Assembly (NCBI GenBank): GCA_047973165.1
Contig: JBKEBM010000071.1
Coordinates: 1-55,051 of the forward strand
From: Chthoniobacterales bacterium
Lineage (GTDB): Bacteria > Verrucomicrobiota > Verrucomicrobiia > Chthoniobacterales > JBKEAD01
DNA: 55,051 nucleotides
Direction of reading: 5' to 3'
Shown: in pieces, positions 1-55,051 of the stretch
How the letters are laid out: every line of letters starts with the position of its first letter
How positions within the stretch are numbered: the first letter of the stretch is position 1
The notes under the pieces: generated by a model
The model's input: only the letters and a program-made list of their open reading frames with translations
Told to the model about the DNA's origin: nothing
The model's database searches: none
Translations under genes and position numbers: made by a program

Positions 1-280
1 GCAGGTCATATTTCCACTCCAGAAAAAGATATAAAATCAGGCCAAGCAAGCTGCCAAAACCATAGCTCAGAGCCCAGATTGAGAGCAAAAAATAACCCGG
101 CTCCCGCTCATAAGCATACCCACAACGCGGACAACCATCCAGCGGAGTCGTCCAGTCATTTATACCCCGGGTTTTGAGCAGGGGCAAAAAAATCGGTGAA
201 ACTCCGCACGTCGGGCACTTCCAAAACAAGGCCCGACGCAAATACAAAATCACCGTCTTAAAATTGCGCTCAAATTTCAT
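1..280 (-). CDS. DUF983-like small membrane protein with zinc-ribbon motifs; start codon in window, 3' end runs off the left edge
   Basis: Manual translation from ATG at 280-278 gives MKFERNFKTVILYLRRALFWKCPTCGVSP...DGCPRCGYAYEREPGYFLLSIWALSYGF. It has two CxxCG motifs followed by a hydrophobic segment, the pattern typical of DUF983. It is absent from the ORF track because no stop codon lies in the window. Confidence 0.55.
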   Translation of the reverse strand, partial: MKFERNFKTVILYLRRALFWKCPTCGVSPIFLPLLKTRGINDWTTPLDGCPRCGYAYEREPGYFLLSIWALSYGFGSLLGLILYLFLEWKYDL

Positions 281-326
281 CTGATCTGTGCAACTATGCA
301 GCCCGTCCTCCCCGGCGTCAATCGCC

Positions 327-486
327 ATAAAGGCACACCCGGAAATCTGCTTTTCGGCAGAGAGACCGGACAAAATTTTGGAGACAAGGCGAAACGATAC
401 CCGCCGGCCTTGTTCCAACGGACATTTTTTCAACGTCGTCTCCAGGATTTTGAGCAACTCTATGCTAAAAATGAGGTTTTCGAGTG
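327..486 (-). repeat. Conserved ~160-nt non-coding element, copy A (homologous to 22599-22760 on the opposite strand)
   Basis: Manual alignment with the reverse complement of 22599-22760 shows long identical runs such as acacccggaaa, caaaattttggaga, aaacgata, ggccttgt, ttttcaacg, gtctcc, ggattttga and aaaatgaggttttcg. Substitutions fall evenly on all codon positions and there are 1-nt indels, so it is not coding. Confidence 0.8.
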
Positions 487-491
487 TACCC

Positions 492-941
492 TTAAACTCG
501 TAAATTTTCCAGTGCCTGGCGCATCTCTTCCGGAAGCGGCATTTTGGTGAGTTTATTTGTGTTTGGGTCCAGGGCCACATAAACCGTCGTAATTTCTCCC
601 TCTGCAGCGAGATTGGTAATGCTGCGCTCAGCTTCTTTAAAAATAAGGAAGCGATAACGCAGGCTGCAATTACGAGTTTCCTCAACGTGCAGACAGACTT
701 CGATTTTCTCCTCAAAGCGTAGTGGCCTGGTGTAGTTGCAGGAAACTTTAATACGCGGCCAGCCGAAGTGTTGAGTATCATCCACTTTGTAAGCATTGGT
801 TCCGCAGGCCCGGAGCATGCCATGCTCCGTCGCTTCGACATAGCGAAGAATATTCGTAAAATGCACGATGCCCGCCATGTCAGTCTCTGCAAACTCAATA
901 CATCGCTCGTGAGCAAAATGATAAAATTCAGGAAAATCCAT
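492..941 (-). CDS. Acyl-CoA thioesterase, 4HBT/YbgC-like hotdog fold
   Basis: 149 aa, ATG start. The N-terminal motif ERCIEFAETDMAGIVHFTNILRYVEATEHGMLRACG is typical of the 4-hydroxybenzoyl-CoA thioesterase family. Confidence 0.8.
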   Translation of the reverse strand: MDFPEFYHFAHERCIEFAETDMAGIVHFTNILRYVEATEHGMLRACGTNAYKVDDTQHFGWPRIKVSCNYTRPLRFEEKIEVCLHVEETRNCSLRYRFLIFKEAERSITNLAAEGEITTVYVALDPNTNKLTKMPLPEEMRQALENLRV

Positions 942-2510: not shown

Positions 2511-3554
2511 TTTGTTGTTAACCTCCACCCGCTGTCCGGTTTGCAGGCTTTGTGCGACGGCATCTACGACGCGCATGTAGTTTACTCCATCCTGAAAGGT
2601 CGGATGCGGACGTTCATTTTTCGGATTCCGCACTGCATCAATAAAATCTGCCTCAACTGCCCAGGGGCGCTCCCCCTCGACCGGTGACTCAAATGTCCCG
2701 GCTTCTCCCTCCGCCGACAACAGAGCAATCTGGTCTGCGGAAAAATTAAATTCCAGAGTTCCGTTGCTTCCCGTGAGTCGGAGTAACTGCATTGGCGGAC
2801 CTATATGGACATTTGAAAAACGCAGATTACAAATTTGTTTCCCGGTTGGAGTTTTTAAGTCTCCCAAAACATCGAGCTGATCCGGGATATCGACTGTTAC
2901 ACCCCCAATTTCTGATTCGAAAATATGCCCCTCAGCAAATACTGAATCAAATCTTCCAAACCAGCGCTGCAATACCTCCACATAAATCCCCAGAGCCATT
3001 ACATTATTGCCGCTGAATTTTCGGAGTTGTCTCCAGTGTGGCTTTGATGCTGCCTTTGCAGGCGGATTCCCCAGGCTGAAAAGTTCAAGGTGCCGCAGTG
3101 CTCCGATCTTTTTTTCAGCCAGCAGTTTTTTAAAAAAGAAATCTTTTTCAAGTCCCATTGGAGGTGGGCAAAGCATCGTAACCAAGTCGGGATTTTCTCT
3201 GGCAGCAACGAGCATTTTTTCCGCCTCTTCCCCGTTGCAGGCCATACGTGCCTGACAAAAAACATGCTTTTCGGCGGCCAGTGCCGCCAGCGTAATCTCG
3301 CAGTGCATGTAAGGAGTCGTGCCGATCCAAATAATATCTACATCCGGCAGATCAATAATTTCCCGCCAGTCGGCATAAGCCCGGGCTTCACTCAGACTTT
3401 CTTCCGCAATAAATTTCTCCGCACTGGCCAGGGTGGAATTTGCAACAGCAGAAATTTTAATACCCGAAATTTTCCGCAGGCCCGGAAGATGTCGTGAACG
3501 AACGATACCGCCTGCACCTATAATTCCGATCCGAAGAGGTGGCGATGAACTCAT
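2508..3554 (-). CDS. Gfo/Idh/MocA family NAD(P)-dependent oxidoreductase
   Basis: 348 aa. It has the N-terminal Rossmann motif LRIGIIGAGGIVRSRHLPGL and starts 3 nt after the hisA stop. Confidence 0.85.
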   Translation of the reverse strand: MSSSPPLRIGIIGAGGIVRSRHLPGLRKISGIKISAVANSTLASAEKFIAEESLSEARAYADWREIIDLPDVDIIWIGTTPYMHCEITLAALAAEKHVFCQARMACNGEEAEKMLVAARENPDLVTMLCPPPMGLEKDFFFKKLLAEKKIGALRHLELFSLGNPPAKAASKPHWRQLRKFSGNNVMALGIYVEVLQRWFGRFDSVFAEGHIFESEIGGVTVDIPDQLDVLGDLKTPTGKQICNLRFSNVHIGPPMQLLRLTGSNGTLEFNFSADQIALLSAEGEAGTFESPVEGERPWAVEADFIDAVRNPKNERPHPTFQDGVNYMRVVDAVAQSLQTGQRVEVNNK

Positions 3555-3557
3555 AAA

Positions 3558-4277
3558 TTACTCGCTTAAAATTTCACGGAGCCTGCCCGTGATGTGACCG
3601 TCGTAAAGAGCCTTGCCGATGATTGCACCGTAAAGCCCTTCGATCCGGTTCAGGCGTTGCAGGTCCCCGGCGCTCGAAACGCCGCCGCTGGCAATTACCT
3701 GACAGGAAATTTTTGAAACCAATGTTTCCATTGCATCAAAATTTGGTCCCTTCAGCATCCCGTCGGTCGAGATGTCTGTGTAAATTACCGTCCCGACACC
3801 GCAGTCCTCAATTTCCTTTGCAAAGTCCAAAGCATCCAGCTTTGAGTCCTGTTGCCAGCCGTGGGTTGAAACTTTCCCGTCCCGCGCATCGATCCCTACA
3901 GCCACTGCTGCCGAGCCGAATTCCTTCACCGCTTCGCAGACAAATCCGATCGATTCCGCAGCACGCGTTCCGATGATCAGTCGCGTCACCCCGGCCTCGA
4001 CGATGCGGGTCGCCGCAGACAAATCCCGAATTCCTCCGCCAAGTTCACAGGGAATCGAAACGGACTGCACAATTTGTTTCACGCAATCCAGGTTGGCAGA
4101 CTGGCCGGAAAAAGCGGCATCCAGATCGACAAGATGCAGCCAGTCCCCGCCTTCCCTGGCCCAGCGCTGCGCAAAGGAAACCGGGTCTTTGGAGTAAACC
4201 GTTTTCTGTTCGGGATCGCCCTGGCGCAGGCGAACGACCTCGCCACTCATTAAGTCAATTGCCGGAAGTAAAAGCAT
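3558..4277 (-). CDS. hisA: ProFAR isomerase HisA
   Basis: 239 aa. MLLLPAIDLMSGEVVRLRQGD... plus GGGIR and ASGGV motifs, following hisH. Confidence 0.9.
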   Translation of the reverse strand: MLLLPAIDLMSGEVVRLRQGDPEQKTVYSKDPVSFAQRWAREGGDWLHLVDLDAAFSGQSANLDCVKQIVQSVSIPCELGGGIRDLSAATRIVEAGVTRLIIGTRAAESIGFVCEAVKEFGSAAVAVGIDARDGKVSTHGWQQDSKLDALDFAKEIEDCGVGTVIYTDISTDGMLKGPNFDAMETLVSKISCQVIASGGVSSAGDLQRLNRIEGLYGAIIGKALYDGHITGRLREILSE

Positions 4278-19629: not shown

Positions 19630-21123
19630 ATGAAATTTTCTGCTTTTTTAGAATCCGCTCAGAGATTTTCCCGATACTGTACGAATCATTCTCTTTCCCA
19701 GGTGCTTGTGTTTCAGCGGTTAAAAAGTCTTCGTGCCTGGCTCCTGTATCTTCTGGCACTGCTGATTCTGGCTGCTGTGATGCTTTCTCTTGGCTGGCAG
19801 CTCGCCCCGCAGATTCGCCCTGATCCGGACAGCTCGGACCAGGGTGCTTACGCTTACCTTGCCAGGCAGATGAAAGACGCTGCCTGGCCTGCTGCCACGG
19901 ATGGAGTAAGAAATCCACTCTTTCCCTGGCTGACGGCTAAGTTTGTGGAGCCGACGTTTAAAGAACACTCTGAAATTGCGGCTTACATGATTCCAGGAAA
20001 ACGCTTCAATGCAGCCCTTGCTACTCTGATCTCTCTGCTCATCGGGCTACTTGCGGCATTTTATCTGCCTCCGCTTCCGGCCTGGAATGTGGCGGCGGTC
20101 AGCGGTCTGGCCTGTCTTTTGCCGATCGCATCTTACTTTGGAGCTGAGCCGCTTTTTTACGGACTTAATTTTGCAGTGTGGTTCCTGGGGGTATGGCTGC
20201 TGCTGAGAAATCCGATTTGGGGTTACGTTTTATTTGGAATTTTTGTTGGCTTTGCTTACCTGGCAAAGCCCTCCACGACACCTTTTGTAGCACTGTTTAT
20301 CTGGATGTCGTTACTCCGGATTGTTTGCTGTTACATCCCGTCTTTGCCATCGGCACTGCGTGCGCTGAACTGGAAACCCTGGCGTTTTGCGGTGGGGATT
20401 TTGCTCTTCGCTCTCATCCAGGGAGCAATTATTTTGCCCAGGTGCTTTTATGCTGAAGAGCACTATGGTGATCCGTTTTATAGTGCGCCGAGCAAGTGGT
20501 TCTGGATTTCTGAATGGAGTATGGCCTATCCGAAATACCAACTCGTTCGGGAACAGGACCTCGCAAAAATGAGTGAGGACGAGCAGCCCACACCTTCTAA
20601 TTTTATCAAACATCACGGCTGGAGTTTTGCCTGGTGGAAGCTGGGTAACGGTACCTTTGTGCGTCTCCAACAACTTATTATTCCGGAGGAGACTTTTCGC
20701 AAAAAGGTTGAAAAAAGAGGACGCCCTCGCAAGGTTCTGCTTCCGTTTCGTGGCATGTATTTGGGAAGCTCGCTTATCCTTATGCTCATTTTGCTGGGCT
20801 TCGTACTTGCAAAAAAACGCTATGACATGCTGGGACCCTGGGCTTTTCCTTTTGTTTTTATTCTGGGTACTTTTACAGCCTACACTCTGGCCTATGGCTG
20901 GTTTCTGGGAATCGGTCCAGGTCCGCGTTACATCATGTCGATGTATATTCCTCTCTTTTTTTTCAGTATGTTTGCGGCGTATTTTCTGCGTCGAATTTCT
21001 GCGGATACTACTTCGGACAGCATTTATCTTCTGGCCCAGATAGCCCCTCTGGCCTTCATCGTTCCTCGGCTCATCAGTCTGTTTCTGCGTCCCGAGTGGG
21101 AACGGATGCTTTACGCTTTTTGA
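19630..21123 (+). CDS. Polytopic membrane protein, ArnT/GT-C-like glycosyltransferase candidate, paralog 1 of a second tandem pair
   Basis: 497 aa with many TM helices. First-loop motif SSDQGAYAYLARQM...ATDGVRNPLFPWLTAKF. Confidence 0.5.
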   Translation: MKFSAFLESAQRFSRYCTNHSLSQVLVFQRLKSLRAWLLYLLALLILAAVMLSLGWQLAPQIRPDPDSSDQGAYAYLARQMKDAAWPAATDGVRNPLFPWLTAKFVEPTFKEHSEIAAYMIPGKRFNAALATLISLLIGLLAAFYLPPLPAWNVAAVSGLACLLPIASYFGAEPLFYGLNFAVWFLGVWLLLRNPIWGYVLFGIFVGFAYLAKPSTTPFVALFIWMSLLRIVCCYIPSLPSALRALNWKPWRFAVGILLFALIQGAIILPRCFYAEEHYGDPFYSAPSKWFWISEWSMAYPKYQLVREQDLAKMSEDEQPTPSNFIKHHGWSFAWWKLGNGTFVRLQQLIIPEETFRKKVEKRGRPRKVLLPFRGMYLGSSLILMLILLGFVLAKKRYDMLGPWAFPFVFILGTFTAYTLAYGWFLGIGPGPRYIMSMYIPLFFFSMFAAYFLRRISADTTSDSIYLLAQIAPLAFIVPRLISLFLRPEWERMLYAF

Positions 21124-21133
21124 TTTTTAAAAA

Positions 21134-22594
21134 ATGCTGTCACGCCTGCTTCCCATTTTGAAACGGTTTGCCGACGGTCTGGCAGCAATTGCTTCTGCGC
21201 GAGTTCAAAGTAATGTGTATATTGCTGCAACTTATTCTCTGGCGACGATACTGAGCCTGCTTATTTTTCTCCTGGTTGGACTACGTCTTGTCGAACAAAC
21301 AAACCAGGACTCGCTGGGTTCGGACCAGGGTGCCTATATCCGCCTGGCACAGGAGCAGCAGGCTGCCTGGTATCCCTTTGCGACGGATGGTTCGCGTAAT
21401 GGATTCATCTCCTGGATCACTGCAAAAATCAGTGATCCCACAAGCGATACTTTTTTTATTTCTGCCAAAAGAACTAATATTGCGGTGGCGGCATTAATCA
21501 CTCTGGGGATGGCGATTTATTTTGGACTTCAGTTACCGGCTTTGACTGCGTGGAATCTGACGATATTGAGTGGTTTCGGCGCACTCCTCGGAATCGGAAG
21601 TTTTTTTGGCGGCGAAGTTTTGCTCTACGGAAGTTTTTTTGGATTTTGGGTATCGGCAATTCGTTTTTTGCAAAAACCAGCCGTGACACCGGCACTGTTT
21701 ACCGCTTTTTTTGCCGCTGCTTCCTACCTTGCAAAGCCCTCTGTTGGCCCCGCTTTGCAGATGCTTTTCGTTTTTTGTATCGCGATTATTTTTCTGGCTT
21801 TTTTTCCGGGGTGGAGTCGTCGATTTTTTAATCCGAAGGACTGGTTTTACAAAAAGTCTCTTGCTCCGCTTTTGGTTCTTTTTGTGTTATTTTTCGTTCT
21901 GACTGCCCCGCGTGCCTGGGACTCCTGGAAAAAATTTGATACTCCTTTCTACAATATCGGTAAATACACTTTCTGGCTGGACGACTGGGATTCCGGCTAC
22001 CACTATCTTGGTTTGTTTCGTAAGGATCGCATAATGGAAGTTGACGAAAGTATCCGTCCGACTCCGCAGAGTTACTTTGCCAGAAACGGTTTTAGCGGCG
22101 CATGGAAACGCCTTCAGACAGGCGTCAGCACCCGGCTGCAGCAGTTTTTTCTCCCGGAAAAAAAAGTTAAACTCTTCGCTCCCGAACGCAAAGGAGAGCA
22201 TCGAGTTCTCCTCACTCACCGCGGATTTTATATTAGCCTGCTGTTCTGTACACTGCTGGCACTCGGTGCGTCGGGAATTATTTTTAAAACACTGCCCGCC
22301 GTTTCGATATGGTGCACACCCGCACTTTACGCAGGGGGTTGTTTTTTTGCTTATCTCCTGGCGTTTGGATGGTTCCTGCCTGTCGGTCCGGGGCATCGTT
22401 TTATGATGATGTTTTACATCCCCCTTGCCTGGACGGCGGTAGTGGCATCAGATATGGTGGCGCGTTCTTTTAATAAAAAAGAACCCCTGGCTCTGCTGGC
22501 ACTAACCCAGCTTTTCATCACGATGTTGTTGGTGAGTCGTCTTTGGGTGCTCCGGATGACACCTCAATTCGGTGAGATACGTTTTACATTTTAG
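21134..22594 (+). CDS. Polytopic membrane protein, ArnT/GT-C-like glycosyltransferase candidate, paralog 2 of the second tandem pair
   Basis: 486 aa. It is collinear with 19630-21123: GSDQGAYIRLAQEQ...ATDGSRNGFISWITAKI, YLAKPS in both, and GPGPRYIM vs GPGHRFMM. Confidence 0.5.
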   Translation: MLSRLLPILKRFADGLAAIASARVQSNVYIAATYSLATILSLLIFLLVGLRLVEQTNQDSLGSDQGAYIRLAQEQQAAWYPFATDGSRNGFISWITAKISDPTSDTFFISAKRTNIAVAALITLGMAIYFGLQLPALTAWNLTILSGFGALLGIGSFFGGEVLLYGSFFGFWVSAIRFLQKPAVTPALFTAFFAAASYLAKPSVGPALQMLFVFCIAIIFLAFFPGWSRRFFNPKDWFYKKSLAPLLVLFVLFFVLTAPRAWDSWKKFDTPFYNIGKYTFWLDDWDSGYHYLGLFRKDRIMEVDESIRPTPQSYFARNGFSGAWKRLQTGVSTRLQQFFLPEKKVKLFAPERKGEHRVLLTHRGFYISLLFCTLLALGASGIIFKTLPAVSIWCTPALYAGGCFFAYLLAFGWFLPVGPGHRFMMMFYIPLAWTAVVASDMVARSFNKKEPLALLALTQLFITMLLVSRLWVLRMTPQFGEIRFTF

Positions 22595-22598
22595 AGCC

Positions 22599-22760
22599 CA
22601 CCCGAAAACCTCATTTTGAGCACAGAGTTGTTCAAAATCCCGGAGACGGCGTTGAAAAGATACCCGTTGGGACAAGGCCAACGGCTATCGTTTTGCCTTA
22701 TCTCCAAAATTTTGTACGGCCTTTCTGCGAAAAGTAGGTTTCCGGGTGTACCCTTTAGTT
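22599..22760 (+). repeat. Conserved ~160-nt non-coding element, copy B (inverted relative to copy A at 327-486)
   Basis: It fills essentially the whole convergent spacer between the stop at 22592-22594 and the pgsA stop at 22763-22765. By manual alignment it is roughly 85% identical to the reverse complement of copy A. Confidence 0.8.
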
Positions 22761-22762
22761 TA

Positions 22763-23332
22763 TCAGCGTTCGTCAATGAGGTTGCGATGACGCCACAGGT
22801 AGGCCAGGCCGGAATACAAAGTCAGTGCGGTTGTGCCATAAACCAAAAAGGCCCCGACTTTATTCCACGCAAACTGATACCAGCTTGCGTTCGTGGAGGA
22901 CCAGTCTCCCACTGCAAGTAAAAGCAGAAAAAAAATCGCAGTAACCATTTGCCAGGCCGTTTTGTGTTTCCCAATTTTTTCGGCGGGCAGTACGACGGAT
23001 TTTGCACTGGCCAGGGTGCGCAGGCCGGTTATTAGAAATTCCCGACTGATGATTACAATGACCGCCCAGGCCGGCATTGCTCCTTTTTCAGTTAAAATTA
23101 TGAATGCTGAAGCCACGAGGATTTTGTCGGCTAGCGGGTCCATCAGTTTTCCGAAATCCGTAATGAGGTTTCGCTGCCGCGCAATTTTTCCGTCCAGGTA
23201 ATCCGTCAACACCGCAATCAGAAAAAAAACCAGTGCAAAGGTGCTGCTTTTCGGCCATTGGAGCGTCAGGGCAGCCACAAAAAACACCGTCACAACAAGA
23301 CGGCTGAGAGTGAGCTTGTTCGGTAAATTCAT
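22763..23332 (-). CDS. pgsA: CDP-diacylglycerol--glycerol-3-phosphate 3-phosphatidyltransferase
   Basis: 189 aa. NKLTLSRL start and the CDP-alcohol phosphatidyltransferase motif DYLDGKIAR...G...DPLADK. Confidence 0.9.
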   Translation of the reverse strand: MNLPNKLTLSRLVVTVFFVAALTLQWPKSSTFALVFFLIAVLTDYLDGKIARQRNLITDFGKLMDPLADKILVASAFIILTEKGAMPAWAVIVIISREFLITGLRTLASAKSVVLPAEKIGKHKTAWQMVTAIFFLLLLAVGDWSSTNASWYQFAWNKVGAFLVYGTTALTLYSGLAYLWRHRNLIDER

Positions 23333-29447: not shown

Positions 29448-30383
29448 TTAGGCGGCATACGCAATAGATTCGGCATCGAAGTATTTTTTTACTCGTGCGG
29501 GGTTGTTGGAGAGTTTGGAGGCGACATCTTCTACGGTCGCTCGCCACTTTCCTTTGTCGCGCCGTTCGGGACGTTTAGCAAGTTCGGTTTTGAGGTTACA
29601 GTTGAGGTATTCGTCGGGATTGAGATAGGGACTGTAGCTTGGGAGGTAACGCACTTGGATAAGATTTGCGTAACGTCGCAGCCAGCGTTTGATGACTTTG
29701 GAATGATGAACTCTCAGATTGTCGATGATGACCACGATCTTGCGACCGGCGGCTTCGTGGATTAAGCCCTTGAGAAAGGTGTGGAAGGTCTGGTAGGTGA
29801 AGCTGCCTTCGTAGCACATGAAGCAGAGTTTGCCTTGGTTGGTTACCGAACTGATCATGTTGATTTTCTCGTAGCGGGCGTTGTGTTCACGCACCGGGGT
29901 TTTGCCCTTTGGGGCATATCCGCAGCCTCGGTGGTCGTGACTGTTGAGGCCGGTTTCGTCAGCCCAGTGAATCTCGGCATTCTCTTTGGCGGCTTGCTTT
30001 TTGATGGCAGGGTATTCTTCTTTGAGCCAAGTTTGAACTTTTTTGTCATCGCGTTGGTAGGCTCGCTTGATTGGTCGTTGCGGGGTAAAGCCCCATCGTT
30101 TGAGGTAGCGCCCGACTTGCCGTAGATCGAGCTTTTTACCTGTCACTTCCTCAATGAGTAGGCCAACGGCTTCGCGGGTCCAGAGAGCGAAGGAAAGTTT
30201 GAGTTGATCTGGGGTTTTTTCGATAAGATGGTTGCGAATTTTTTTCGGTTCATCCAGGAAGTTTGTGTGTATGGAGAGAAAGGGTGAGATTAAAATAGGG
30301 TGAGGCGAAAACTGAAATCGGTCGAATACCTCGGGTAGCTTTGCAACCCCGAGCTTTAGTCCCTTAAAAGTCAAAAGCAGCAC
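29448..30383 (-). mobile_element. IS630-family DDE transposase gene, 5'-truncated (HTH region missing)
   Basis: EKTPDQLKLSFALWTREAV...LKRWGFTPQRP...IHWADETG...APKGKTP...VVIIDNLRVHHSK...LPSYSPYLNPDEYLN. The ORF opens with GTG and ~45 non-homologous codons. No upstream HTH ORF is present. Confidence 0.8.
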
Positions 30384-30398
30384 AAAAAGCGCAGAGTT

Positions 30399-30728
30399 TT
30401 AAAGGGCAGAAGATTGGAGCTTAGGAAAGATAAGCCATTGATGAAGTTTGCAGCAGGTGGTGTTGAGCCACCGTGCGGTGGTAACGAAAAAAAGTAATAT
30501 CATTGCTGGTAGCCTCAATGCGCAGCACGCCAACTTAAGCGCATTATCCCGAATACTCTCGCGCAAAGGCTCTGCAAAACGCCCAATATCAAAACACCAA
30601 ACCCCCTCCATCGCCCGGGGATGCACCACCTCTGTAAGCGTCCTCGTTACCACCAAATGATCAAAATATCCCCAAACCTCTTCTATTTCTTCTGCATAAC
30701 GCGTTAGTAATTCCGATATTTTTTCCAT
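30399..30728 (-). CDS. Hypothetical ORF, possibly the 5' remnant of a gene interrupted next to the IS630 fragment
   Basis: The first ~65 aa look protein-like (MEKISELLTRYAEEIEEVWGYFDHLVV...). The C-terminal ~40 aa are Cys/Leu-rich, low-quality sequence. Confidence 0.25.
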   Translation of the reverse strand: MEKISELLTRYAEEIEEVWGYFDHLVVTRTLTEVVHPRAMEGVWCFDIGRFAEPLRESIRDNALKLACCALRLPAMILLFFVTTARWLNTTCCKLHQWLIFPKLQSSAL

Positions 30729-31088
30729 AAATCCACACTATCACATCCCTCACCTCTTGGCGCCCAGGGGATTGCCATGTTGTGGCGTAAAAACCGACGC
30801 CTTTTTTCTTATACACATGAACTTTCCGGATGAAGCAAATTCTCTTCTCGAAAAAACTCCCGAAACTAATTTTTTCTCTTTTTTACAGATTTTTTTCGTA
30901 TCATAAACTAATTGAAATCAACATATTACAAAAAAATTTCTAAATGAATATCGTTGCGCAATAAAAATATATTGCATTCTATCAAATTTTTGTATAACTT
31001 TCCAGCAGTTCATTAAGCCAGTCTCTTAAGGATCAGTTTAGTGAGCTGCGAAAACTTAATTGTTTTTTTCATAGTTAGTAGTTCGAGG

Positions 31089-31142
31089 CGGCTGTGTTTT
31101 ATTTCCTAGAGGGGGGCTTAAAGCGCAGCCGTTCTCCTTTTT
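31089..31142 (+). terminator. Orphan terminator-like hairpin inside a long non-coding gap
   Basis: CGGCTGTG (31089-31096) pairs with CGCAGCCG (31124-31131), one G-U pair, and is followed by ttctcctttttt. No annotated gene lies upstream on this strand. Confidence 0.4.
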
Positions 31143-31606
31143 CGAATGCTTTAAATTTTCTCAGCGTCCCTTCATACCAAATCTATGTTCGAGTTTAAAT
31201 ACTGACATCAAAGCGTCAGGTGTAAATCGTATGACGAAGGCGACTCCTTTACAAAAAATAGTCAAACAAGGATGACGGACTCAGCATACTACCGTGCGTG
31301 AGTTACCTATGACAAAAAAAACGGACCCAGGCTCCACAGAGTTTTTGTTGCCTGGGGAGAAGGGCGGAAGCTCTATTGTATCTTTGATACATGGGGTAAA
31401 GCCGGCGATGCCAGACGACAAAAAAGCAAATAGATACTCCAATTATTTTTTGGATCTGGTATAAGTTCGGATTGCATCACCTGAGGGATATTCGGAAACC
31501 TTTTCCCAAAAATCTTTCTCATTTCTCATTTACCACTTGCAGCAAAGCCCGCTTCGTGGCAAAACCCCTGTCCTCATTACACAAAGAAGAAAAAAATAAA
31601 AAAGAC

Positions 31607-31867
31607 ATGGCCACAACAGCTACAGCCGAAGCAGGCGATTTAAAACTGCACGATAAAGACACCGGAAGTGCCGGAGTGCAGATCGCAGTCCTTACCGAAA
31701 AAATCAATACACTCACCGATCACCTGAAGTCTCACGCAAAGGATCATTCATCCCGTCGAGGTCTTCTGAAGATGGTAGCCCAGCGCCGCCGCCTCCTCGA
31801 CTATCTCAAGCGCGTCGAAGGCAGCCGCTACAAAACCGTCATCGAAAAGCTCAACTTACGTAAGTAA
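31607..31867 (+). CDS. rpsO: 30S ribosomal protein S15
   Basis: An internal ATG gives an 86-aa protein with [50 protein letters not shown]. Confidence 0.95.
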
Positions 31868-31888
31868 GTCATTCCAAACAAAAGCCGA

Positions 31889-31914
31889 AACTGACCGCAT
31901 CCGGTCAGTTTTCT
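31889..31914 (+). terminator. rpsO-pnp intergenic hairpin (terminator/attenuator)
   Basis: AACTGACCG-catc-CGGTCAGTT followed by ttct. Its position is analogous to the rpsO terminator / pnp leader hairpin known in other bacteria. Confidence 0.65.
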
Positions 31915-31972
31915 GCTGTCAGCCCCCGTGATCATCGGGCTGACCCATCACACACTAATCCCTTATTCTATT

Positions 31973-34123
31973 ATGTCACACTCAGTCACCTGCCAAATCG
32001 GTCAGGCATCCATCACTTTCGAAACCGGCAAACTTGCCAAACTCGCCGACGGCGCCGTCCTCATCCGTTGCAACGACACTGTCGTCCTCACCACAGCTGT
32101 CTCCGCTACCACCGTCAAAGAAGGGCAAAATTTCTTCCCTCTCACTGTTGACTATCGTGAAAAAGCAGCAGCTGCCGGCAAATTTCCAGGCGGATATTTC
32201 AAACGCGAAGGCCGCCCCTCCGAAAAAGAAATTTTAACCTCCCGCCTAACCGACCGCCCACTCCGCCCGCTCTTTCCAAAAGGCTACCTCTACGACACGC
32301 AAGTCATCAGCCTCCTGCTAAGTGCCGACGGAGTCAACGACCCCGACATTCTTAGTATAAACGCCGCCTCGGCAGCCGTGGCCGTCTCCGACATCCCCTT
32401 TGCAGGACCCGTCGGCGCAGTCCGCGTCGGACGCATTGCCGGTGAATTTGTCGTCAACCCAACCCACGACCAACGCGAAGAAAGTGATCTCGACCTCATC
32501 TACGTCGGCGACGGCGAACAGGTCATCATGATCGAAGGTGCAGCCAACGAACTCCCCGAAGCTGAGTTTGTAAAAGCACTCGACTACGCAAAAGAACAGG
32601 TTCTTATCCTTGTCAACGCACAAAAAGAACTCGTCAGCCTCGCCGGCAAAGCCAAACGTGAAGCCGAACTCTTCACCGTCCGCGACGAATTCAACGAAAT
32701 TGCAAACCAGATCGTCGGCGACCGTATCGCAGCCGCCATCTATACACCCGGTAAACAAGACCGCGCAAAAGCCACCGCTGCACTTCAAAAAGAAGTCTCC
32801 GCAGCCATCCTCGAAAAATATCCCGACGCAGACAGCTTCGAAATCTCCCAGGCCTTCGAGCAACTCGAGAAAAAAGCCTTCCGTATCAGCATCCTTGACA
32901 AACAGGAGCGCTGTGACGGACGCGCACTCCACGAACTCCGCAAACTCGAATCCGAAGTCGGCCTGCTCCCACGCGTTCACGGCTCCGCCCTCTTCCAGCG
33001 CGGCGAAACCCAAGCCCTTGCCCTCACCACGCTCGCCACAGCCGAAGAAGGTCAGGAATTTGACGCCTACGGCGGCGGCGTCTCCAGCAAACGCTTCCTT
33101 CTCCACTACAACTTCCCGCCATTCAGTGTCGGCGAAACCGGCCGCTTCGGCGCCACCAGCCGTCGCGAAACCGGCCACGGTGCACTCGCCGAACGCTCCA
33201 TCCTGCCCGTCATCCCACCCGTCGATGAATTCCCTTACGCCATCCGCATCACCAGCGAAGTGATGGAGTCCAACGGCTCCACCTCCATGGCCTCCGTCTG
33301 CGGCGGCACTCTCGCCCTGCTCGACGCCGGAGTTCCGCTCCGCCGACCCGTCGCCGGAATCTCCGTCGGCCTTGTCACCGAGTATGACGAAAACGGACAG
33401 CTCAAACGCTACCACACCCTCAGCGACATCCTCGGATCCGAAGATCACTACGGCGACATGGACTTCAAACTCTGCGGCACCTCCGAAGGCATCACCGGAT
33501 TCCAGCTCGACCTGAAGCTTGCCGGCATCCCGCACAGCATTATGTCCGAAGCCGTCGAACTCGCGACCAAAACCCGTGGTGATATCCTCAACCACATGGC
33601 CGGAACTCTCTCCGGACACCGCGAGGAAATGAGCCCCCACGCCCCGCGTATCGAAACCATCCGCATCTCTCCCGATAAGATCGGAATGCTCATCGGCCCC
33701 GGTGGCAAAACCATCAAAGGTATCGTCGCCGAAACTGGTGCCGAAATCAACATCGACGACGACGGCTCTGTCCACATCTACTCCAGCATCGCCGAAAGCC
33801 TCAACCGCGCCAAAGAGATCATCCAAAATATGCTCAAAGAAATCACCGTCGGTGAACTCTACCAGGGCACAGTTGTTTCGATCAAAGAATTCGGTGCCTT
33901 TGTCGAAGTGCTGCCCGGAAAAGACGGACTCGTTCATATTTCCGAACTCGCCGACTTCCGCGTCAAACGCACCGAAGACGTTGTCAAGCAAGGCGACAGC
34001 ATCTGGGTTAAATGCATCGGTATCGACGACAAAGGACGCGTAAAGCTCAGCCGCAAGGCCGCCATGGCTGAGCGCGACGCCGAACACGGCGAAGCCACCC
34101 CGTCCGACGACGCACAGGGATAA
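31973..34123 (+). CDS. pnp: Polyribonucleotide nucleotidyltransferase (PNPase)
   Basis: An internal ATG at 31973 gives 716 aa with two RNase PH domains, KH (ISPDKIGMLIGPGGKTIK) and S1 (GTVVSIKEFGAFVEVLPGKDGLVHISELA). Confidence 0.95.
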   Translation: MSHSVTCQIGQASITFETGKLAKLADGAVLIRCNDTVVLTTAVSATTVKEGQNFFPLTVDYREKAAAAGKFPGGYFKREGRPSEKEILTSRLTDRPLRPLFPKGYLYDTQVISLLLSADGVNDPDILSINAASAAVAVSDIPFAGPVGAVRVGRIAGEFVVNPTHDQREESDLDLIYVGDGEQVIMIEGAANELPEAEFVKALDYAKEQVLILVNAQKELVSLAGKAKREAELFTVRDEFNEIANQIVGDRIAAAIYTPGKQDRAKATAALQKEVSAAILEKYPDADSFEISQAFEQLEKKAFRISILDKQERCDGRALHELRKLESEVGLLPRVHGSALFQRGETQALALTTLATAEEGQEFDAYGGGVSSKRFLLHYNFPPFSVGETGRFGATSRRETGHGALAERSILPVIPPVDEFPYAIRITSEVMESNGSTSMASVCGGTLALLDAGVPLRRPVAGISVGLVTEYDENGQLKRYHTLSDILGSEDHYGDMDFKLCGTSEGITGFQLDLKLAGIPHSIMSEAVELATKTRGDILNHMAGTLSGHREEMSPHAPRIETIRISPDKIGMLIGPGGKTIKGIVAETGAEINIDDDGSVHIYSSIAESLNRAKEIIQNMLKEITVGELYQGTVVSIKEFGAFVEVLPGKDGLVHISELADFRVKRTEDVVKQGDSIWVKCIGIDDKGRVKLSRKAAMAERDAEHGEATPSDDAQG

Positions 34124-53760: not shown

Positions 53761-55051
53761 ATGCAAAAAGTCCTTCGATCCTCCACCAGTGAAGTAAAAC
53801 CCAAACTCCGTCTTGTCGGCTGCGGGAATGCAGGAGTTAAAATCGTCGATCGTATTTTTCTGGATCACTTCGGTCAGGCCGCCTGCACGGTTCTGAATAC
53901 TGACACCCAGTCTCTGACCTCTGCCGTTACAGAAGACAAAGTCCTGCTGGGTTCTCGCACGGCACATGGACTTGGTGCGGGTGCGGACCCTGAAATCGGT
54001 GCCCAGGCCTGCGAGGAGTCTGCACAGGAATTTGTTGAGCTTGCCAAAAATGACGACATTTATCTGCTCGTTGGCGGACTTGGCGGAGGCACGGCTGGCG
54101 CAGCGATGGATCAGCTCGCCCGCAGTATTCAAAATAATTCGTCTGAGAAAAAACAGGTCACTATAGCACTTGTCACTCTTCCTTTTGAATTTGAAGGAAA
54201 GCGACGTTTTGAACAAGCCCGGCAGGCTCTGCACAGACTCTATGCAAACTGCGACCTCGTTCTTGCTTTTGACAACAACCGTCTCAACGAACTCATCAAT
54301 ACCGATTCCCGGGTGCAGGAAGCTTTTCAGATTGCAGACGACACGCTCTACTCAGCCAGCACGGCCCTTGCGGCTCTCCTGGAAGCCGAAGGTCTGACCG
54401 ATATTTCTCCTGGAGATTTGATAAAATTCCTCCGCAGCAGCGACCCTCGCATTCTCTTTGGTGTTGGACACAGTTCTTCCGCCAATCGCGCCCACGAAGC
54501 AGTTTCCCGGGCTTTACGTTCGCCGCTTTTGGAAAAAGGTCGTCGCCTGGAAGAAGCCACCAGCGTGCTGGTGCAACTCTCCGGACAAGCCGATCTGAGC
54601 TATGCGGAAGTGGCTGCTGCCCTGACTGAAATCCAGCGACATATCGATGACTCGGCATACTTTGCTTTTGGAGTGCAAACGAACAGCAATGTCGTCGAAG
54701 GGCTGAGCGTGACCATCCTGGCCAGTAACAAACGCCGCACCTCCGATTCTGAAAAAATAGCAGAACCCGAATCAAAATCTGAACCAGAGCCGAAATCTGA
54801 GCCGGAACCTGAGCCGAAACCTGAGCCGAAACCTGAGCCGAAACCTGAGCCGAAACCTGAGCCAGAACCTGAGCCAGAACCTGAGCCAGAACCTGAGCCA
54901 GAAACTGAGCCAGAACCTGAGCCAGAACCTGAGCCGGAACCTGAGTTGATTTCAGCAAGACAAAAAGAGGAAACTCGCAGCGACGATCAAACCGAGTTAT
55001 TTTCGAAGGAAGAATTACCTGCTGAACGAAAAGCTGTCCCTGCCGCTGAGG
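53761..55051 (+). CDS. ftsZ: Divergent FtsZ (3' end beyond the window)
   Basis: Manual translation from ATG 53761 is open to the window end: [16 protein letters not shown]...NTDTQSL...[11 protein letters not shown]...[12 protein letters not shown]...[11 protein letters not shown]. It is not in the ORF track because no stop is present. It follows ftsA. Confidence 0.85.
54763..54945 (+). repeat. In-frame tandem 6/12-nt repeat encoding an EP/KP dipeptide tract in the FtsZ C-terminal linker
   Basis: cctgagccgaaa x4, then cctgagccagaa units. Translation: [57 protein letters not shown]. Confidence 0.9.

Follow-up and report, generated by a model that had tools for sequence, protein, structure and literature searches.

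A palindromic, TA-flanked repeat at gene ends in two Chthoniobacterales genomes, probably a MITE-type element

The window analyzed here, i.e., the whole stretch of 55,051 bp, is an entire contig of an NCBI MAG classified as Chthoniobacterales bacterium (locus tags ACK5NG_; protein MFV0415507.1 is among its products). It harbors two copies of a short repeat, hereafter copies A and B, each placed at a gene junction; a third copy (copy C) from another genome is described further below. The genes and copies concerned are the following:

2..328, minus strand: gene downstream of copy A, co-directional, cut by the contig start; no Pfam match
328..495, plus strand: copy A, including the terminal TA/TAA at both ends (three-copy alignment; nhmmer E 7.5e-59)
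492..941, minus strand: gene for a 4HBT/acyl-ACP thioesterase; the right end of copy A forms its TAA stop (Pfam PF01643, PF13279, PF03061)
21134..22594, plus strand: gene for a 486-aa membrane protein, earlier labeled 'GT-C-like'; no Pfam match
22591..22757, minus strand: copy B (three-copy alignment; nhmmer E 3.5e-59)
22763..23332, minus strand: CDP-alcohol phosphatidyltransferase (pgsA-like) gene, convergent with the 486-aa gene (Pfam PF01066, E 1.6e-42)

Within the window, blastn aligned both copies at 85.4% identity over 158 nt (E 6e-42), with spans of 327-490 (plus strand) and the reverse complement of 22595-22764, and MAFFT gave a concordant result. This matches the whole-length identity of about 85% proposed in the initial annotation, and the dissimilarity of the flanks that it described also held, those of A and B being unrelated to each other. 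With regard to the extents given there (327-486 and 22599-22760), the core does align, whereas the similarity and the dyad symmetry reach 328-495 and 22591-22757. A repeat search of the 55,051-bp window returned copies A and B as an inverted pair (145 nt, 83%), the sole dispersed repeat of note, and neither blastn nor an nhmmer profile found a further copy anywhere in the window. The similarity between A and B is real and far beyond chance. Including its flanks, the element measures 167-168 bp, with a GC content of 46-49% compared to 51.5% for the window. Copy B occupies the whole interval from one convergent gene to the other, while copies A and C lie between co-directional genes; with such neighborhoods, the element is expected to be transcribed.

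Within the region from 328 to 22757, copies A and B bracket cell-envelope genes (acyltransferase_3, M23 peptidase, acyl carrier protein and the 497/486-aa paralogues). The latter are tandem paralogous multi-pass membrane proteins of 497 and 486 aa (window 19630-21123 and 21134-22594) lacking a Pfam match, and genes near them give weak matches to PMT_2. Just a few Chthoniobacterales-like contigs yielded orthologues of the 486-aa protein, each time with a gene of ~500 aa directly upstream.

Copy C lies at 3550-3717 of a locus (L011) from MAG VLC_107 (JBKEAD010000130.1, GCA_047971915.1), another Chthoniobacterales genome, so that the known total is three copies at three non-homologous loci in two MAGs. 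It was retrieved by an exact-match pattern comprising both repeat ends, which was run over one genome per species for 185,579 species and yielded this one true relative; the window MAG itself is absent from the DNA collections searched. Copy C is 79% identical to copy A and 84% identical to copy B, and with the latter it shares a 34-nt identical run, the most conserved stretch (22641..22674, minus strand, from the copy comparison). Its surroundings are unrelated to those of A and B, with a gnd-like gene on one side and a lipoprotein/lepA region on the other, where a lipoprotein-like gene and then lepA follow on the same strand. The VLC_107 orthologue of the 486-aa protein is 68% identical, and the orthologue of the copy B site in that MAG is cut by the contig end.

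Some further features of the copy C locus were recorded. The gene downstream of copy C (2996-3560 of L011, minus strand) encodes a signal peptide with a lipobox (..VISAGC); no ATG or GTG is present between copy C and this signal peptide, and the frame is open through the element (ORF 2996..3916). Insertion of copy C may have displaced or replaced the start region of this lipoprotein-like gene. In VLC_107, the gnd-like gene has parB on one side and copy C, the lipoprotein gene and lepA on the other, whereas in four relatives (L013-L016) it is flanked by genes for an Ig-like protein and an FAD-binding protein; these differing neighborhoods place copy C at a gene-order break. MFV0416657.1 is the probable gnd-like orthologue of the window MAG, as judged only by how near its accession number lies to MFV0415507.1.

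Each copy is an imperfect palindrome over its full length, a property overlooked in the initial annotation. The reverse complement of every copy matches the family profile (E 1e-16 to 1e-20), and RNA folding of either strand gives one long hairpin, with an MFE of -54 to -69 kcal/mol and z of -4.6 to -6.5. In the three-copy alignment, 65 pairs were defined, with 92.8% of the cells paired compared to 36-54% when the partners were slid by 1-3 columns. The six termini of copies A, B and C conform to a consensus of TA followed by AGGG(Y)ACACCCGRAAAHCT, and the ends pair with each other in every fold. TA is found at all six ends and TAA at five of them; since no empty site was found, these bases may belong to the repeat rather than represent a target duplication. 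The terminal inverted repeats of the window copies are as follows:

328..355, plus strand: left terminal inverted repeat of copy A, TAAAGGCACACCCGGAAATCTGCTTTTC, which pairs with 467-495 in the folds
467..495, plus strand: right terminal inverted repeat of copy A, which holds the thioesterase stop (TTA on the plus strand, 492-494)
22729..22757, minus strand: left terminal inverted repeat of copy B (in the orientation of copy A), 5 nt from the pgsA-like stop
22591..22618, minus strand: right terminal inverted repeat of copy B, which holds the TAG stop (22592-22594, plus strand) of the 486-aa membrane protein

In all three copies, the terminal TA coincides with the stop codon of a gene, the three genes being unrelated, and each of these stop codons is made up of the TA at the flank and the base with which the repeat begins. 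They are the TAA of the thioesterase gene (494-492, minus strand), the TAG of the 486-aa protein gene (22592-22594, plus strand) and, at the right end of copy C, the TAA (3716-3714) of the gnd-like gene, which encodes an NAD-dependent 6-phosphogluconate dehydrogenase-like protein. The initial annotation had placed one end of the element 5 nt after a stop codon in both window copies: the association with stop codons stands, but the supposed gap lies within the terminal inverted repeat and, in copy B, amounts to 4 nt owing to a 1-nt deletion. The claimed equal orientation relative to the upstream gene is seen in 3/3 copies without reaching significance (p about 0.25), and a stop adjoins copy B on each side, the second being the pgsA-like TGA (22765-22763), 5 nt from the element's other end. 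The 486-aa protein (C-terminus ..FGEIRFTF) and the gnd-like protein (C-terminus ..GGHLEKQS) end in C-termini with the length and sequence pattern found in their orthologues, and a profile search of the DNA fetched for the orthologue loci L004-L007 and L013-L016 showed that the element is absent from them. On the other side of copy A, the gene at 2..328 (minus strand) has in-frame ATGs at 328-326, overlapping the TA of the left end, and at 280-278.

With regard to coding capacity, substitutions are distributed evenly among codon positions, as the initial annotation had maintained; this holds for each of the six frames, none of which has a third-position or synonymous excess. By contrast, its assertion that the single shared ORF is disrupted by an indel was not accurate, since both window copies have several frames open throughout and a gene-sense frame is uninterrupted in A, B and C alike. 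Protein searches covered two of the six frames: translation of a plus-strand frame gave no homologues among 5.8 billion clustered proteins (word-indexed search), and translation of the gene-sense frame gave none among 1.84 billion representatives (full HMMER search). Together with the lack of codon-position bias, these results agree with the earlier view that conservation does not act at the protein level. A coding role, with a small protein product of some 55-70 aa, has next to no probability: some frames are indeed open throughout, including the gene-sense frame open in 3/3 copies, but no synonymous or third-position excess is present, indels shift the frames and the two searched frames have no homologues.

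The element was also described previously as not belonging to a known RNA family, in line with an Rfam scan of the window that returned no match at gathering thresholds; the best sub-threshold hits (E 1.1 and 3.1, both to eukaryotic families) are noise. Covariation was not found in the three copies, with one compensatory pair among 65-68 pairs on either strand, an unfavorable RNAalifold covariation term and 378 of 500 shuffles reaching the observed score. G-U pairs give conflicting strand signals, given that the apex favors the gene-sense strand and the outer stems the opposite one; by manual count, the whole hairpin holds about 19 G-U pairs on the antisense strand versus 8 on the gene-sense strand.

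At its apex, the hairpin has a GC-rich stem of 7 bp, after which a T-run with interruptions follows on either strand:

401..421, both strands: apex of copy A, CCGCCGG-CCTTGTT-CCAACGG; 7-bp stem on the gene-sense (minus) strand with two G-U pairs, then GUAUCGUUUC
22664..22684, both strands: apex of copy B; 7-bp Watson-Crick stem, then a T-rich run on each strand

A terminator scan flagged the apex of copy B on both strands and left that of copy A unflagged. The apex stem of copies A and C persists on the gene-sense strand by means of four G-U pairs, which would be C-A mismatches on the opposite strand. The U-run of the apex is interrupted (UAUCGUUUU), and isolated apices fold weakly (z -0.8 to -2.8).

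Taken together, the inverted repeats, the TA/TAA flanks, the full dyad symmetry, the non-orthologous copy in another genome and the absence of covariation lead us to favor the interpretation that this element is probably a non-autonomous MITE-type DNA transposon, of a new family in Chthoniobacterales (Verrucomicrobiota). Among the three readings offered in the initial annotation, a small non-autonomous repeat fits best, a terminator-associated module fits weakly and in part, and a structured RNA lacks the covariation. Bacterial MITEs are described as non-coding units of <200 bp, A+T-rich, with inverted-repeat ends, a terminal 5'-TA-3' and a target-site duplication, whose transcripts form an RNA stem-loop through pairing of the 5' and 3' ends, and some of which have an open frame through the element (PMC2229807). 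The element matches this description in being small, non-coding, dispersed and somewhat A+T-richer, in having inverted-repeat ends, a terminal TA with a putative duplication and a predicted stem-loop in which both ends pair, and in lying within transcribed gene junctions. Transposition, target duplication, the class of transposase and an effect on RNA are what we infer.

In the proposed mechanism, the mobile unit would comprise ~164 bp of non-coding DNA, with inverted-repeat ends of roughly 22-28 nt and halves that are complementary almost throughout. A DDE transposase encoded elsewhere would bind the inverted repeats and insert the element at TA or TAA, duplicating the target, and its parent insertion sequence would be predicted to end in AGGGYACACCCGRAAAHCT. 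Duplication of TA would presumably indicate an IS630/Tc1-mariner-like transposase, and duplication of TAA what we take to be an IS5/PIF-Harbinger-like one, both being leads only. A survey of ~190 kb of DNA (the window plus 16 fetched loci) revealed neither an insertion sequence nor a transposase bearing such ends.

Removal of the element together with one TA provided putative pre-insertion sites for the three loci. At locus B, the site would have read TTT-TA-GTTTATCAGCG (also given as TTT-TA-GTTTATCA), with a native TAG 4 nt from the convergent pgsA-like stop; at locus C, CAGAGT-TA-AGAGCC would restore a native TAA; and at locus A, with CGAGTT-TA-TGGCGATTGA, the thioesterase would have been three codons longer, overlapping the in-frame ATG of the next gene. 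In all three copies, the targeted TA would have belonged to a stop codon or to one of the final codons of a gene. As the repeat starts with A or G, TA plus that base would rebuild a stop (TAA or TAG), and insertions of this kind would be harmless and hence would persist in tight gene junctions. Survivorship would thereby explain the coincidence with stop codons, given that, in tight junctions such as locus B with its 4-nt spacer, stop codons may offer almost the only TA at which insertion does no harm; with n=3, survivorship and a true target preference are inseparable. Once inserted, the element would be co-transcribed with the upstream gene and fold as a long hairpin, in which the apex stem and the interrupted U-run could attenuate read-through or protect the mRNA 3' end. 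A role as an attenuator, insulator or 3'-end stabilizer after insertion is thus a plausible prediction.

Several observations stand against the MITE interpretation. Just three copies are known, neither an empty site nor a parent insertion sequence turned up in the loci covered, and the family looks rare in public data, as judged by exact-match patterns in collections that lack the window MAG. Moreover, the identity between genomes (84% for B and C) is about the same as that within the window (83% for A and B), and the only orthologous coding region that aligns between VLC_107 and the window MAG reaches 74% at the nucleotide level, below the identity of the copies; a decaying selfish repeat alone would not predict such likeness between genomes. 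This high between-genome identity points to either recent spread or transfer, or selection on the sequence.

Selection is central to an alternative that we consider unlikely, in which the element would be a cis-acting gene-end module under purifying selection, whatever the route of its original spread, i.e., a 3'-UTR or intercistronic hairpin acting as a bidirectional terminator/insulator or as a barrier to mRNA decay. The start of 3/3 copies at a stop codon within transcribed gene junctions, the terminator-like apex of copy B on both strands, the preservation of the gene-sense apex stem in A and C by four G-U pairs, and a between-genome identity (84%, plus the 34-nt identical run) exceeding the 74% of orthologous coding sequence are all consistent with such a module. 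They are set against the lack of covariation (one compensatory pair in 65, with 378/500 shuffles equal), a whole-hairpin G-U excess on the antisense strand that makes the strand signal inconsistent, and the interrupted T-run of an apex that, in copy A, the terminator scan did not flag; furthermore, an RNA function leaves the inverted-repeat ends and the TA flanks unaccounted for. The module overlaps with the MITE interpretation, as a MITE can be domesticated. A specific version combining both, namely a MITE that specifically targets stop codons (the TA of TAA/TAG), rebuilds them using its initial base and, after domestication in Chthoniobacterales, serves as a bidirectional insulator/terminator at gene ends, seems to us improbable; if true, it would explain why copies at ~84% contrast with aligned orthologous genes at 74% across genomes.

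A REPIN-like REP doublet, moved by a RAYT (Y1/HUH) instead of a DDE transposase, would share with the element a long hairpin of two inverted halves and, like REPs and REPINs, a location between co-directional or convergent genes, and REP ends can supply the stop codons of flanking ORFs (PMC3733652). We regard it as highly unlikely, given that the ends of the element have no GTAG or CGTC tag, that its halves measure ~80 nt compared to 20-40 nt and that the TA/TAA flanks resemble a duplication. To our knowledge, RAYT-type elements make no target duplication. REPs usually number hundreds of copies, in contrast to two copies in 55 kb plus one detected in the other MAG. The inverted orientation of A and B, bracketing 22.1 kb, and a gene order upstream of the tandem paralogues that differs in the related MAG might also suggest that both copies terminate, in inverted orientation, either a 22-kb composite transposon flanked by MITEs or an invertible segment, with cell-envelope genes as cargo. 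The chances of this are very slim, because the bracketed segment has no anomalous GC content, its arms are just 83% identical, copy C is solitary in the other MAG, each copy has its own complete inverted repeats and TA flanks, and the junctions in the Logan assemblies agree with those of the window.

Several known repeat systems resemble the MITE-type element proposed here. Like ERIC/IRU (RU-1) of enterobacteria, it is an imperfect palindrome, within a range of 127-170 bp for both, that is bounded by inverted repeats and has TA at its termini, and, like ERIC/IRU, it is intergenic and would be co-transcribed and form an end-to-end long RNA hairpin, which for our element is a prediction; ERIC has been reported to change the stability of upstream mRNA (PMC2229807). 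The two differ in that they share no sequence similarity, belong to different phyla and have a far lower detected copy number in our case. ERIC is reportedly well conserved between species, which Wilson and Sharp are said to have considered a long-standing puzzle in 2006, and the element is likewise well conserved between species. In blastn distant mode, no match was obtained in 5,426 E. coli genomes, and therefore the element is not ERIC, RU-2 or BIME by sequence.

Correia/NEMIS of Neisseria and RUP of S. pneumoniae are also non-coding MITEs, 107-155 bp long, that end in inverted repeats and duplicate a TA target, and the ends of RUP link it to an IS630-family transposase; within the excerpted text of PMC2229807, no stop-codon junction is mentioned for either of them. 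Unlike our element, they are present in at least 100 copies per genome, and no cognate insertion sequence is known for the element. SPRITE shares the character of a small dispersed repeat with a terminator-like hairpin, for which a role of the attenuator/insulator/3'-end stabilizer type has been proposed (PMC10969869), whereas in our element nothing but the apex, within a far longer palindrome, resembles a terminator, with an interrupted U-run and support from the terminator scan for copy B only. A further likeness is found in GTAG-tagged REPs (e.g., SMAG), whose ends often give the flanking ORF its stop codon, which favor sites between co-directional or convergent genes, and which occur in Verrucomicrobia, e.g., in Opitutus terrae (PMC3733652). 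These REPs are nevertheless 20-40 bp long, carry a GTAG/CGTC head and are linked to RAYTs, in contrast to ~165 bp and TA-flanked inverted-repeat ends. In the literature, we found no description of a MITE family for Verrucomicrobiota.

The three copies present nothing beyond a well-described class of elements. In Chthoniobacterales MAGs, the element can mark assembly breaks that repeats cause and can serve in strain typing. Should additional copies bear out the exact match with stop codons, it would exemplify a TA-targeting element settling harmlessly in very compact genomes and would provide a test case for the ERIC-type question of why certain palindromic repeats stay conserved across species.

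Further searches yielded no other copy. The two-end pattern found no true copy in JGI metagenomes; a 21-nt internal pattern, ACAAAATTTTGGAGAYAAGGC, had no matches in genome or metagenome contigs, this stretch being variable in copy C; viral contigs, plasmids and phages showed no similarity to the element; and the repeat-end strings matched only unrelated primer sequences in full-text literature. One more match to the two-end pattern (L010, on the same contig as L012, from the Planctomycetaceae MAG SXWA01000184.1) was rejected, since its interior is unrelated and the match derives from a different, REP-like unit of 58 nt. Two direct copies of this unit, 90% identical and 123 nt apart, lie at 5290-5470 of L010; the unit is made up of a 32-nt palindrome (GTGGCCAAAGTCCATCCATGGCCTTTGGCCAC) and a small hairpin with a T-run, and represents a chance match to the pattern.

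Copy B interrupts each of two independent short-read (Logan) assemblies of this organism, with contigs ending inside it. Of the eight Logan contig ends, four fall within 22597-22700 and the other four in ordinary sequence, and one of the former stops where the preceding 30 nt are common to no known copy. No exact protein for the genes adjoining copy A was found in the Logan contigs. The breaks hint at additional copies or strain variants, and strain heterogeneity or low coverage could account for them as well.

Other observations on the window concern its composition. Around 18 tandem copies of a 12-nt unit (AACCTGAGCCGA-like) occupy 54746-54973 at the contig end, inside an ORF (54296..54958, minus strand) in which they encode a Gly/Ser-rich repeat; this tandem repeat probably explains why the contig ends there. 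At 30001-34000, a 2-kb bin with a GC content of 0.44 lies beside one of 0.58, these being the two extremes of the window.
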